Assembly: GCA_900757905.1 (NCBI GenBank)
Contig: CAAEPN010000005.1
Span: forward strand, 1-33,456
Direction of reading: 5' to 3'
From: Clostridia bacterium
Lineage (GTDB): Bacteria; Bacillota; Clostridia; Oscillospirales; CAG-382
DNA length: 33,456 bases
In this document: positions 3,359-29,762 of the stretch, one piece after another
Numbering within the stretch: position 1 is the stretch's first letter
How the letters are laid out: every line of letters starts with the position of its first letter
The notes under the pieces: model-generated
The model's database searches: none
What the model saw: only the letters and a program-made list of their open reading frames with translations
What the model was told of the DNA's origin: nothing
Position numbers and translations under genes: made by a program

Positions 3359-4057
3359 ATGAACAAAGACCGCGAAAAGAGTATTTTAGAAATCGTCATA
3401 AAGGAAAAGACCGTCACGGTAAAAGACCTTGCACGCCGGTTATACGCAAGCGAGCCGTCCATCCGCCGGGACTTGTGCAGCTTAGAAAAGCAAAAGCTCT
3501 TGCGGCGCACGCACGGCGGCGCGGTTTTGGACGAAAACGCGCTGTCGGAGATCAAGGTACCCTTTCTGATACGGGAGCTTGAAAAAAGCGATGAGAAAAT
3601 TACGATCGCACGCAAAGCGGCGGCTTTCGTACCGGACGGCAGCATTGTGTTTTTAGACGCCTCCACAAGCGCCTATGTGATGATTCCGTTTCTCGCCGAA
3701 AAAAGGAATTTGATCGTTATCACCAACGGCGTCAAGGCTCTCGCCAAGTTAAGCGAGAACCACATCACCTGTATCGGCACAGGCGGTAATGTCGTTCATT
3801 CCTGTCTTGCCTTTGTGGGAGAGGACGCACTTCGGACGATTGCCGAATACAACGCGGATTTTTGCTTTTTCTCCTGCCGTGGGTTTTCCGAGGACGGGAA
3901 GATCACCGACATCGCACAATCCGAAAACGCAGTAAGGCGCAAGATGATTGAACACGCCAAAAGCTCTTACCTGCTCTGCACCAGCGATAAGATCGGCAAG
4001 ACCTGCTACCACAATCTCTGCACAGCAGACGACATTACCGGCATTATCCAGGCATAA
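3359..4057 (+). CDS. DeoR-family transcriptional regulator
   Basis: N-terminal wHTH (ILEIVIKEKTVTVKDLARRLYASEPSIRRDLCSLEKQKLLRRTHGGA) followed by a DeoR-C sugar-phosphate sensor-like domain. The gene is divergent from the GDPD operon. Confidence 0.9.
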   Translation: MNKDREKSILEIVIKEKTVTVKDLARRLYASEPSIRRDLCSLEKQKLLRRTHGGAVLDENALSEIKVPFLIRELEKSDEKITIARKAAAFVPDGSIVFLDASTSAYVMIPFLAEKRNLIVITNGVKALAKLSENHITCIGTGGNVVHSCLAFVGEDALRTIAEYNADFCFFSCRGFSEDGKITDIAQSENAVRRKMIEHAKSSYLLCTSDKIGKTCYHNLCTADDITGIIQA

Positions 4058-4065
4058 AGCGCTTT

Positions 4066-5769
4066 TTATAACCAAAATGCTTCGGAATTGGTCAAGCCCT
4101 CCGTGAAAAACTCCGCCGTCTGAACCTGTTCGCCCACAAACGCATTCGGACGGCCGTTTGCATGCAGCATGCCGCGGTCAAACCATCCATAGCCGAATTG
4201 CCGCTCGTCCGCACCGTCGCACAATTTCCGGTCGACCATCATCGACACAACACGGGAACCCGCGTCCGCCTGCACGGTGACCTTATGCATGCCTTTATCC
4301 GAAAGCGGCGCTTTATCGGAATAAAAAACATTGGTTCTTCTTCCGTCGCTTAGGGTGAATATTATCTTTTCGCCGTCGAAGGCCGCCTCCATGCCCACAC
4401 GCTCTTGCGTCATGGTCGAGAACAGCACGCCGCTTTTGTCAAAATCGGCTTCAAGGAACAGACTGAAGCCTGCGCCGGTATCCACGGAATGGTTGTCGTT
4501 CGACGTGTGATCGCGTTCGATAAACGGTCGAAGCACCGGCATGGTACTGCCGTTTTTCAAAACGGTTCCGTGCTTTCGCTCGCCTTCTTTGTCAAACTGC
4601 GACCACAAGCCTTCGATAAGCGACTTTTCGGCCTTATGCGTTCTGGCGAGGCATTTCTGCGTTTCCGTAAAATAATACTCGCCGCCCTCTTCGATCATGT
4701 CCGGATAGCTCATCCGGATCATCACATCCGGGTCATATAACAGTATTTCCGACTGCGAGAATTTCAAGCGCATTCCGTCCGCCGCGGCATATTCCACCGC
4801 GCCCGAAAGCCATACCGGGTTGCGGTCGTCATACGTTTTGCCGCCATGGTTGTGGTACCAGTACAGGTACTTGCCGTTTTGGCACTTCCAGATGAAATTG
4901 GCCGCACGCGGATGCCGCATAGGGCGGCCGTCCGCATAGGTCATCTTTTCCGGCGCGGTAAAAGTATGTCCCTTATCCCGGCTGTAAGCGCAATAGGAAT
5001 TCCCGGAAACCGTGCGGAATACGCAGAAAATGCTTCCGTCGCTCAGCGTAACAAAGCTGTGCTCCTCGGAAACGTCGCTGACTTCACGCGGCACTTTGAT
5101 ACCGTGTTCGCCGTCAGGAAGCGTTTCCCAATGCAGCTTTGCAGCGTCCTTTTCCGTGTTGATGTTATCGCATTTTAAAAGAACGCCCTCCGTCTTGTAC
5201 ATAAACGTATCCTTTAAGCCGCCTATCTTATAAAGCGGAACAAAGGCGCTGTTATCTAACGTAAACGGCTTGCCGACATTCCAAAAATAGAGCACCTTGC
5301 CGCCGTATGGATTTGACCGGTCGGTTTCCATCACGCGCTGCGGAATTTCGTACCACTTATCCGACCAGGTTTTTCCGTTGTCATCGGTATATTTATAGAC
5401 AAACGAGCCTTGAGAATCCACGCGGTAGCACTTCTCATCCTCAAGCCAACCGGGATCGACTAACACGAACCGCCGGTTCTCGGCATTATAGTTATAAAAG
5501 CAGTACACTCTGCCATAGCTCGTTTTGTAGAGCACCGCATAGGAGGATTCCGGATTTTCCGGCGATTCGACGCAAACCGGCGCCGACCAGGTCTTTCCGC
5601 AGTCAAAGCTTTTGGCCGAGGTGATGTGCTGTCCCTTGCTGCCCTCGGTGCCTGCGCCCGTAGTCACTACCATTAACCAACCGCCGTCGTCGGTCTTTAC
5701 GACATACGGTTGATCGCTGTAATTGCTTACCGGAATGGGATCGCCGCTTCGAACATTTCTGTTATCCAT
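4066..5769 (-). CDS. Cytoplasmic BNR/Asp-box (sialidase-fold beta-propeller) protein with a C-terminal LamG/ConA-like domain
   Basis: Three Asp-box motifs (SFDCGKTW, TDDNGKTW, SRDKGHTF). No signal peptide (MDNRNVRSGDPIPV). The C-terminal ~170 aa are beta-rich and lectin-like. RBS AGAGG is present, and the gene starts 5 nt after the upstream gene's stop. Confidence 0.8.
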   Translation of the reverse strand: MDNRNVRSGDPIPVSNYSDQPYVVKTDDGGWLMVVTTGAGTEGSKGQHITSAKSFDCGKTWSAPVCVESPENPESSYAVLYKTSYGRVYCFYNYNAENRRFVLVDPGWLEDEKCYRVDSQGSFVYKYTDDNGKTWSDKWYEIPQRVMETDRSNPYGGKVLYFWNVGKPFTLDNSAFVPLYKIGGLKDTFMYKTEGVLLKCDNINTEKDAAKLHWETLPDGEHGIKVPREVSDVSEEHSFVTLSDGSIFCVFRTVSGNSYCAYSRDKGHTFTAPEKMTYADGRPMRHPRAANFIWKCQNGKYLYWYHNHGGKTYDDRNPVWLSGAVEYAAADGMRLKFSQSEILLYDPDVMIRMSYPDMIEEGGEYYFTETQKCLARTHKAEKSLIEGLWSQFDKEGERKHGTVLKNGSTMPVLRPFIERDHTSNDNHSVDTGAGFSLFLEADFDKSGVLFSTMTQERVGMEAAFDGEKIIFTLSDGRRTNVFYSDKAPLSDKGMHKVTVQADAGSRVVSMMVDRKLCDGADERQFGYGWFDRGMLHANGRPNAFVGEQVQTAEFFTEGLTNSEAFWL

Positions 5770-21106: not shown

Positions 21107-21136
21107 AAACGCGGAGAATTTACATTCTCCGCGTTT
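21107..21136. terminator. Terminator hairpin, left copy of a duplicated 30-mer
   Basis: AAACGCGGAGAATTTACATTCTCCGCGTTT. The stem is GCGGAGAAT/ATTCTCCGC with an A-run upstream. It matches 21328-21357 at 29 of 30 positions. Confidence 0.75.
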
Positions 21137-21327
21137 GAGCGTGTCGCAAAACTTCGTTTTACGACACGGAAACAGATTCGTGCGCTCGCGCCTCATGCCA
21201 AAAAGCTCCGCTTTTCGACACTTGCGAATCTATCGGTGAAAAATCCGTGGCGCATGTCCCCGGATTTTTCGTTTTTTATTGAACTCGGCTTCGCCCGAAA
21301 AGCCTCATAGACTTTTGCAACAATCTG
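21137..21327 (+). repeat. 191-bp interspersed structured element, copy 1 (putative non-autonomous mobile element or RNA module)
   Basis: Manual alignment to the reverse complement of 27363-27553 gives 14 differences (11 substitutions, 3 indel positions) over 191 bp. Internal hairpins include a bidirectional terminator-like stem AAAAATCCG/CGGATTTTT (21239-21269). Confidence 0.9.
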
Positions 21328-21357
21328 AAACGCGGAGAATTTAAATTCTCCGCGTTT
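21328..21357. terminator. Terminator hairpin, right copy of the duplicated 30-mer
   Basis: AAACGCGGAGAATTTAAATTCTCCGCGTTT followed by TTTA. It lies 14 nt past the stop of the convergent 927-aa gene. Confidence 0.75.
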
Positions 21358-21370
21358 TTATCGTTACATT

Positions 21371-27330: not shown

Positions 27331-27362
27331 AGTCCTGTCGCACTTATTCTTGCGACAGGACT
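27331..27362. terminator. Terminator hairpin, left copy of a duplicated 32-mer
   Basis: AGTCCTGTCGCACTTATTCTTGCGACAGGACT, preceded by AAAA. It matches 27554-27585 at 30 of 32 positions. Confidence 0.75.
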
Positions 27363-27553
27363 CAGACCGCTGCAAAAGTCTATAAGGCTTTTCGGGCGAA
27401 GCCCGATTTCAATAAAAACGAAAAATCCGGGGACATGCGCCACGGATTTTTCGCCGATCGATTCGCGAGTGTCGAAAAGCGGAGCTTTTTGGCATGAGGC
27501 GCGAGCGCGCGAATCTGTTTCCGTGCCGTAAAACGTAGTTTTACGACACGCTC
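27363..27553 (-). repeat. 191-bp interspersed structured element, copy 2 (inverted relative to copy 1)
   Basis: The reverse complement GAGCGTGTCGTAAAAC...GCAGCGGTCTG aligns end to end with 21137-21327. The internal terminator-like hairpin is at 27421-27451. Confidence 0.9.
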
Positions 27554-27585
27554 AGTCCTGTCGCACTTATCCTTGCGGCAGGACT
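27554..27585. terminator. Terminator hairpin, right copy of the duplicated 32-mer
   Basis: AGTCCTGTCGCACTTATCCTTGCGGCAGGACT followed by TGAATTTT. It lies 23 nt past the maa stop. Confidence 0.75.
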
Positions 27586-29661: not shown

Positions 29662-29762
29662 GTCTTTTCACAAAAATTTTCAACTTTTTTGTATGGGGAA
29701 CGAAGTTTTGCAACACGCACATAAAAACCGCTTTTTCCCAAGCGAAATTTGTGAAAAAAGGT

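Follow-up and report, generated by a model that had tools for sequence, protein, structure and literature searches.

The 33,456-nt contig CAAEPN010000005.1 (assembly GCA_900757905.1) of a Clostridia bacterium from the CAG-382 lineage of Oscillospirales, hereafter called the window, carries two copies of a 191-bp element, and each of them is enclosed between two nearly identical copies of a hairpin. As judged from the comparison of its alleles and junctions, this element is shown to be mobile and polymorphic among strains: it inserts specifically at hairpins, duplicates the whole hairpin, can use the regenerated hairpin as a target again and leaves a single hairpin behind when it is lost. It is probably a non-autonomous DNA transposon, i.e. 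a MITE (miniature inverted-repeat transposable element), mobilised in trans by a DDE transposase that duplicates the whole hairpin on insertion.

Results

Two copies of the element and their direct repeats

Copy 1 occupies positions 21137–21327 of the plus strand, runs from GAGCGTGTCG to CAACAATCTG and was delimited by repeat search, pairwise alignment, BLAST and nhmmer. Copy 2 (27363–27553) lies on the minus strand, inverted relative to copy 1. In the repeat search of the window the pair appeared as inverted arms 21136–21328 and 27362–27554 (193 nt, 91% complementary), and nhmmer detected the two copies with E-values of 5e-66 and 2e-65. According to the pairwise alignment the shared sequence extends from GAGCGTGTCG to TCTG, and the flanks outside it are unrelated between the two sites. 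An initial annotation, made from the letters of the window, had already described copy 2 as a second, inverted copy with identical boundaries, which the repeat search and alignment confirmed, and its 14 differences counted by hand are the number given by BLAST (92.7% identity across 192 columns); its other observations on the sequence itself hold as well. No open reading frame (ORF) of 50 or more amino acids is found inside the element in the ORF list of the window.

Direct repeats that enclose copy 1 (site A, 21107–21136 and 21328–21357) match at 29 of 30 positions. For copy 2 (site B) the repeats 27331–27362 and 27554–27585 match at 30 of 32, so that the 32-bp direct repeat which the initial annotation had placed on both sides of 27363–27553 was recovered by the repeat search. 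All four repeat units form hairpins from the first to the last base (−11 to −14.5 kcal/mol as DNA, z from −6.5 to −8.3), and three of them were called terminator-like. The left copy at site A (30 nt, loop TTAC, 97% repeat family) folds end to end; the right one (30 nt, loop TTAA) is followed by a T-run. At site B both copies are 32 nt long; the one next to tepA has TTATTC/GCGAC and a perfect stem, and the one next to maa has TTATCC/GCGGC.

Filled and empty alleles

Alleles were compared in 20 loci, which were chosen by exactly identical TepA and Maa proteins and come from separate, independent assemblies of one species. Empty alleles of site A (L002, L004, L008, L013 and L015) possess a single 30-nt hairpin with the loop TTAA. 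The filled allele L016 differs from the empty one by exactly the element and one hairpin (in the window the adjoining T-run is longer by two T), and the duplication coincides with the maximal palindrome of the ancestral allele. A single hairpin, here of 32 nt, is also present in the empty alleles of site B (L004, L005 and L019), and the difference between filled and empty alleles is 223 bp, that is 191 + 32. In all 15 filled alleles of this site the two hairpins are diverged in the same manner, with TTATTC/GCGAC facing tepA and TTATCC/GCGGC facing maa. The empty allele L005 carries the tepA-side variant, and empty alleles L004 and L019 carry the maa-side one. This pattern is explained most simply if one class of empty alleles, or more, was derived from a filled allele via recombination or slippage between the 32-nt repeats. 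Thus, the strain comparison proposed in the initial annotation revealed presence/absence polymorphism with exactly one hairpin in the empty alleles of sites A and B, and its idea that the two hairpins of each site represent one duplicated target agrees with the empty alleles of both sites. The same single-hairpin alleles rule out an independent origin of the two hairpins.

A third strain-polymorphic insertion (site C) was found in L012 and L019 at 3829–4012, about 0.8 kb past the right end of the window, between genes for an AI-2E transporter and a DUF5131 protein. Its last ~13 nt and the second hairpin are gone, apparently via a deletion at TTTTGC microhomology. Also past the right end of the window there is a fixed older copy (L001:18978–19128), which lacks its first 40 nt with the left-end hairpin; the gene for the AI-2E transporter and that for AraC lie on either side, and the copy comes straight after another terminator.

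Target sites and the duplication footprint

Among 88 non-redundant left junctions the 3′ end of a hairpin was found at offset 0 in 62, at offset 1 in seven and at offset 2 in four, so that 73 of the 88 lie within 2 nt. The conclusion that insertion sites are terminator hairpins, drawn in the initial annotation from two sites, is thereby extended to a large set of junctions, most of which abut the hairpin exactly. The base preceding the element is T in 77 junctions. Whole-hairpin duplications of 23–35 nt flank 17 of the 23 full copies; in clean cases the duplication is the whole palindrome, and palindrome sequences are unrelated from site to site. These duplications start with A (15/15) and the left copy ends with T (14/15). 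Outside them the left flank is A-rich (52% A) and the right one T-rich (62% T), and by this composition the outer flanks are those of bidirectional terminators. Two loci (L025 and L090) contain a tandem element-hairpin-element-hairpin array, and therefore the regenerated hairpin was re-used as a target.

Two simple schemes of insertion are ruled out by this footprint. Insertion into the hairpin loop is excluded, as both flanks are complete hairpins in direct orientation, and site-specific recombination with an element-borne att site is excluded, as the duplicated sequence differs at each site.

Size and distribution of the family

Scanning with a 20-mer of the core gave 16 loci in the metagenome-assembled genome (MAG) CAKSOW01 of an uncultured member of Eubacteriales, one of them with two copies, i.e. 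at least 17 copies, and one further match in UMGS882. The left-end pattern was present in 73 metagenome stretches, 39 of them in ERZ773136 and 22 in a second assembly. Most metagenome matches lie where contigs end, which is typical of repeats that interrupt assembly. In a related species (~79% identical over syntenic genes) copies of the element sit in different hairpins. The assumption of the initial annotation that the element exists in many copies beyond the two of the window was therefore justified, with the same pattern observed at dozens of unrelated hairpins, and the existence of 88 distinct junctions excludes a private segmental duplication. The element is a multi-copy, protein-less mobile family of uncultured gut Clostridia.

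In one case two loci disagree: a full copy at L075:3574 and another at L028:6022 have the right hairpin in common, and their left hairpins differ, which may reflect either recombination between copies or chimeric assembly at the repeat.

The MAG rich in the element also contains a second, unrelated non-coding repeat (0.3–0.8 kb, ~80% identity; L037:5700–6470, also L023, L024 and L029), which has GTTACTTTTTCG...CGAAAAAGTAAC hairpins and no ORF longer than 120 amino acids. Across all collected loci the sole candidate for another element flanked by duplicated hairpins was found in L023, where hairpins are spaced by 1679 bp. It was rejected, since a lipoprotein gene has been duplicated there in tandem along with its terminator (L023:3282–6659), beside a copy of the element, with the same hairpin present three times within 1.9 kb.

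Terminal repeats, internal hairpins and relics

The element is 191–193 bp long, and the consensus length is kept in 23 copies. The terminal inverted repeats GAGCGTGTCGCAAAAC and CAGATTGTTGCAAAAG are 16 nt long and imperfect, matching at 10 of 16 positions. In copy 1 the left repeat GAGCGTGTCGCAAAAC is located at 21137–21152 on the plus strand and the right one, whose reverse complement is CAGATTGTTGCAAAAG, at 21312–21327 on the minus strand. In copy 2 the left repeat (27538–27553) reads GAGCGTGTCGTAAAAC on the minus strand, and the right repeat (27363–27378) reads CAGACCGCTGCAAAAG on the plus strand. The inverted-repeat arms at copy 1 continue for 15 nt past the flanking hairpin into the element.

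Directly after the left repeat there is its own inverted copy, and the two form a 13-bp left-end hairpin (CGTGTCGCAAAAC-TTC-GTTTTACGACACG, 21140–21168 on the plus strand in copy 1), which is near-invariant among the 23 copies. Four more hairpins are found inside the element beyond it. One of them (copy 1, plus strand, 21194–21222, CATGCCAAAAAGC/GCTTTTCGACAC) contains three G.U pairs, formed only on the minus strand of copy 1, and another (21238–21270, plus strand, GAAAAATCCG...CGGATTTTTC) shows compensatory changes in diverged copies (UA to AU and CG to UA). Palindromes of this kind may change in place: at L014:16949–16981 the GAAAAATCCG hairpin has a loop exactly reverse-complementary to that found elsewhere, and in L023 the loops of the duplicated hairpins are CAAAG and CTTTG (4770–4800 vs 4996–5024).

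A 20-nt left-end piece occurs three times in the window, with 0 occurrences expected by chance. The third one is a solo remnant GCGTGTTGCAAAACTTCGTT at 29699–29718 on the minus strand, which lies in the intergenic region upstream of a Big_2/SLH gene. A 43-nt relic is found at the orthologous spot (L082:2285–2326) in the species that is ~79% identical, and together they suggest an old insertion which has been largely deleted.

Genes around sites A and B

Both sites are situated between convergent genes, as the initial annotation had stated (ssp against the SLH gene and tepA against maa) and as the gene annotation agrees: at site A the SASP gene faces an SLH/transglutaminase gene, and at site B the gene of ClpP-like TepA faces that of a Mac/hexapeptide acetyltransferase. 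It had also been proposed that the element leaves one hairpin for each neighbour. Physically this is true, but the proximal copy is short of most of the original U-tract, which is left beyond the distal copy. The only T residues that the proximal hairpin retains are those within the duplication, which at site A gives UUU followed by GAGCG or CAGAU. Since the proximal hairpin loses most of its U-tract, read-through from both convergent genes into the element is plausible.

The T-run after the right hairpin of site A (21355–21362) has TTTTT in the window and TTT in the empty alleles and in the filled L016; the longer run would strengthen the U-tract. In several strains the 5′ part of ssp is replaced by an island with a relaxase and a large serine recombinase (~20919 in window positions; L013:17127–20612 and L012:17332–20612). 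All four combinations of presence and absence of this island and of the element at site A occur. The island resembles intervening elements known in other sporulation genes.

Strand-dependent folding and covariation

For copy 1 the minimum free energy is −72.2 kcal/mol (z −4.6) for the reverse complement and −55 kcal/mol (z −2.5) for the other strand. Mean values for 23 distinct copies are −74 and −59 kcal/mol, respectively, and the strand that corresponds to the reverse complement of copy 1 (the window plus strand for copy 2) folds better in every one of them. The consensus energy calculated by RNAalifold is −63 kcal/mol for this strand vs −44 kcal/mol for the opposite one, and about six fixed G.U positions are found on it vs one or two on the other. 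The latter include the helix GATTCGTG/TGCGAATC, whose two wobbles had been registered in the initial annotation as pairing only on the top strand of copy 1: these wobbles are real, but folding of the whole element favours the opposite strand in 23 of 23 copies. Recent minor variants are unbiased in respect of the strand (10 G.U sites vs 11 A.C sites) and so give no indication that single copies are now under strand-specific selection. On the better-folding strand seven pairs have changed on both sides, vs 2.3 ± 1.1 in shuffled controls (none of 500 reached seven), mainly in the GAAAAATCCG/CGGATTTTTC hairpin. The internal hairpins are, on this evidence, maintained. As for the hint at RNA-level constraint given in the initial annotation, modest covariation of this kind is in its favour, but it is not specific for RNA: Watson-Crick compensation would fit RNA, single-stranded DNA and cruciform DNA alike, so that an RNA-level function stays unproven. 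At the gathering score Rfam 15 gave no match on either strand of the window, and in the E-value mode it returned only noise, the best sub-threshold score being 24 bits with a cut-off of 51.

One may ask, then, whether the element is a structured-RNA module, i.e. a 3′-untranslated region (3′-UTR) element or a small RNA bounded by duplicated terminators, which maybe spreads via an RNA intermediate as a bacterial SINE-like element. The far better folding of one strand, its fixed G.U pairs and the excess of compensatory pairs are in line with this idea, as are the probable read-through from both neighbours that have lost the proximal U-tract and a weak promoter-like site at 21215–21244. However, relative to the terminators the better-folding strand is in most cases the antisense one, recent variants bear no trace of strand-specific selection, Rfam recognises neither strand, and compensatory Watson-Crick changes are expected equally for DNA hairpins. 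DNA transposition is indicated instead by the terminal inverted repeats together with the defined ends and the exact duplications, and neither an A-tail, nor a reverse transcriptase, nor a series of 5′ truncations was seen. An RNA module thus appears unlikely.

Strand-biased folding together with imperfect subterminal hairpins may equally be expected of mobility as single-stranded DNA, with the element being a derivative of IS200/IS605-type (Y1 HUH) insertion sequences (IS) or an integron-like recombinase substrate whose hairpins are recognised on one strand. Hairpin targets do form on single-stranded DNA at replication forks, and there is a weak orientation bias relative to the T-tract of the terminator (15 of 21 right flanks are T-rich vs 30 of 65 left flanks that are A-rich). 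But such systems lack both target duplications and terminal inverted repeats. The insertion point of IS200/IS605 elements lies 3′ of a fixed tetra- or pentanucleotide, whereas here duplications of 23–35 nt appear at unrelated targets, and none of the copies was seen to have TnpA, TnpB or an integrase nearby. We consider this way of mobility quite unlikely, and assignment of the element to IS200/IS605-derived PATE or REPIN sequences was rejected given its terminal repeats and 23–35 nt duplications at targets unrelated in sequence.

Relation to known elements

By its small size and absence of coding capacity, terminal inverted repeats, target duplication and dispersed polymorphic copies the element corresponds to a MITE with an atypical length of duplication. 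With classical MITEs (Correia, RUP, ERIC, MITEAba12) it shares small size, lack of an ORF, terminal inverted repeats, multi-copy and intergenic location, hairpins and polymorphism among strains. Unlike the element, they generate fixed short duplications of 2–9 bp set by the transposase, whereas here the length of 23–35 nt is set by the structure of the target.

Terminator or REP stem-loops serve as landing sites for group IIC introns and for REP-targeting insertion sequences (IS1397/ISKpn1 and members of IS110; PMC1702495). Group IIC introns differ from the element in being ribozymes longer than 600 nt, whose insertion after the hairpin gives no duplication, and such an identity was rejected for a 191-bp element which has a duplication and no Rfam match at the gathering score. 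IS1397 differs in that it inserts in the loop and makes a 3–4 bp duplication, and IS110-type elements in that they make none.

The closest precedent is provided by IS1272 and TnSha1 of staphylococci (IS1182 family), which target terminators or other palindromic hairpins of 21–38 bp without sequence consensus, directly downstream of genes and in either orientation, with the hairpin being deleted and no duplication formed (PMC5678879, PMC4923244). Their size range of targets overlaps the 23–35 nt of the element, and IS1272 has 16-bp terminal repeats starting, as here, with GAG (GAGTCTGGGACATAAA, taken from the public record). IS1272 differs in being 1.9 kb long with its own transposase, whereas the element is 191 bp and has no ORF. 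A hypothetical pathway b was drawn by Wan et al. in 2017, in which attack of 3′-OH ends at the 5′ feet of a cruciform leads to the entire stem-loop being duplicated (PMC5678879). The footprint predicted by this pathway is that of our element, with its ends at the 5′ feet and the duplication equal to the stem-loop. That scheme was drawn as a possibility without an example, whereas the natural family described here shows such a footprint as a rule. In the searchable literature we found no MITE or IS with whole-hairpin duplication besides hypothetical pathway b (PMC5678879).

Termini were then compared with those of ISCpe5-like members of the IS1182 family (pEC369, C. isatidis, C. beijerinckii and others), whose left end is GGGGCTGTCGCACTAA and right end GGAGCTGTCGCATTAG, the left terminus of the element being GAGCGTGTCGCAAAAC. 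Terminal repeats of the family are about 16 bp long and start with G[A/G]G. The terminal GAGC(G)TGTCGCA of the element may be compared with GGAGCTGTCGCA and GGGGCTGTCGCA of the ISCpe5-like elements and with GAGTCTGGGACA of IS1272, the match being suggestive but short. The ISCpe5-like ends can be written as GGAGC-TGTCGCA or GGGGCTGTCGCA against GAGCGTGTCGCA of the element. GAGC and TGTCGCA, separated in the element by one additional base, are common to its left end and the ISCpe5-like right end, and TGTCGCA occupies positions 6–12, as in the ISCpe5-like left end. Hosts of both are Clostridia, and ISCpe5-like elements are likewise inserted at the 3′ ends of genes between an A-tract and a T-tract. 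All ten such insertions collected (L162–L171) closely follow a gene on its downstream side, are bordered by an A-run and a T-run and have no hairpin, as though they had taken the place of a bidirectional terminator's stem-loop, which is reported for IS1272. The elements of L162–L171 and IS1272 each have a terminator-like hairpin 20–35 nt inside the left end.

Discussion

The footprint described above suggests the following order of events. A DDE transposase acting in trans would recognise not a sequence but an extruded hairpin or cruciform, and both 3′-OH ends of the element would be joined to the stem at its 5′ feet, one on each strand and immediately 5′ of an A. The two attack positions would be adjacent in the cruciform, being 23–35 bp apart in linear DNA, and gap repair would then copy each single-stranded hairpin, giving a duplication of the whole palindrome. 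IS1272 would be the mirror image of this process, with attack at the 3′ feet and deletion of the hairpin. Long direct repeats would later permit precise loss of the element by recombination or slippage. Since both neighbours keep a hairpin, insertions would be nearly neutral, and this would explain the high copy number. The most likely candidate for the enzyme, given terminal similarity to ISCpe5-like elements and common preference for hairpin targets, is a transposase of the IS1182 type (DUF772/DDE_Tnp_1/DDE_Tnp_1_6).

Several lines of data weigh against this scheme. The link to IS1182 is thin, since likeness to ISCpe5-like elements is limited to ~12 terminal nucleotides. None of the IS1182 members compared shows duplication of a hairpin: IS1272 removes all or part of it, whereas the element duplicates it whole, the ISCpe5-like elements likely replace it (10 of 10 sites without a flanking hairpin), and the duplication of ISPse1 from the same family is 4 bp, short and unlike that found here. 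For the IS1182 family ISfinder gives direct repeats of 0–60 bp, so that other members may make long duplications. Nor was a source of the enzyme found. No transposase is encoded in the window, a tblastn search with the IS1272 enzyme detected no IS1182-type transposase in 1.4 Mb of loci, and within the 73 metagenome and 21 genome loci collected no element of greater length has these ends. Neither plasmids (blastn, distant mode) nor viral contigs (core 22-mer and terminal 15-mer) yielded a copy of the element. As to the structure of the target, attack on a cruciform is inferred; duplications often end 1–3 A.T pairs outside the G+C stem, short of the last possible pair, and in about nine of 15 cases one more pair could form beyond the duplication. 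Six of the 23 full copies have no clean duplication; these copies are old or truncated, or else possibly recombinant or chimeric, e.g. L075 as compared with L028. Strand-biased G.U pairs of the internal hairpins are unexplained by a purely double-stranded DNA mechanism, and almost all comparative data come from metagenome assemblies, in which repeats can cause chimeras.

The search for an autonomous partner gave some further negative results and false leads. No inverted pairs of end motifs at IS-like spacing were present in the 94 loci, and no ISCpe5-like member was found among the collected loci of the element's host. A protein search from the IS1182 transposase of pEC369 returned only close ISCpe5-like relatives. 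Matches of the terminal 15-mer in viral contigs (41) had no second end or repeat and were rejected as chance, and solo left-end loci (L063, L067, L080 and L082) were rejected as containing ordinary genes and no transposases.

Could host processes, such as template switching or recombination of palindromes in the course of replication and repair, produce the same picture with no transposase at all? Palindromes are certainly dynamic, as seen from the loops flipped in place in L014 and L023, from the microhomology-mediated deletion at site C and from the mismatch of flanks between L075 and L028. However, an identical 191-bp sequence with base-exact end points recurs at dozens of unrelated hairpins, its ends share with the targets no homology that could guide a template switch, and its conserved terminal repeats resemble IS termini, which makes such an origin highly improbable. 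Insertion by a Cas1-type (casposase-like) integrase is extremely improbable: spacer integration does duplicate the CRISPR repeat by attack at both ends of a palindrome, the duplicated unit here is palindromic (23–35 nt) and the hairpin-element-hairpin-element-hairpin array is formally like repeat-spacer-repeat, but casposon duplications are fixed at 14–15 bp, the element carries IS-like terminal repeats, and neither the window nor the Pfam-annotated neighbouring loci, in which no dedicated search was made, showed any cas1 or casposon genes.

A non-autonomous transposon moved by a trans-acting transposase is, therefore, our preferred reading. Targeting of hairpins by IS1182-family elements is known, while for structure-defined, hairpin-length duplications made by a MITE family we found no account in the searchable literature. 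It is conceivable, although we put this forward tentatively, that the element represents the first natural case in which the length of a duplication is dictated by DNA secondary structure, through 5′-foot attack at the four-way junction of a terminator cruciform, with the hairpin being regenerated and re-usable and the insertion reversible; strand-biased hairpins may add to this some function of single-stranded DNA or RNA, for instance as 3′-UTR structures of transcripts from both convergent genes. If the proposed chemistry is right, the family is a natural record of a transposase reading the shape of DNA, where the fold itself brings both transfer sites together, and it offers a comparative handle on 5′-foot versus 3′-foot attack in IS1182-type enzymes, complementing hairpin-deleting IS1272.

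At many convergent gene pairs the element makes the 3′ UTRs longer and adds structure to them. Short-read assemblies of the uncultured host species are fragmented by it, and the presence or absence of insertions supplies strain-level markers. Terminator hairpins, regenerated for each neighbour and restored upon precise loss, would constitute a low-cost niche, which may explain the presence of dozens of copies in small genomes of gut Clostridia.

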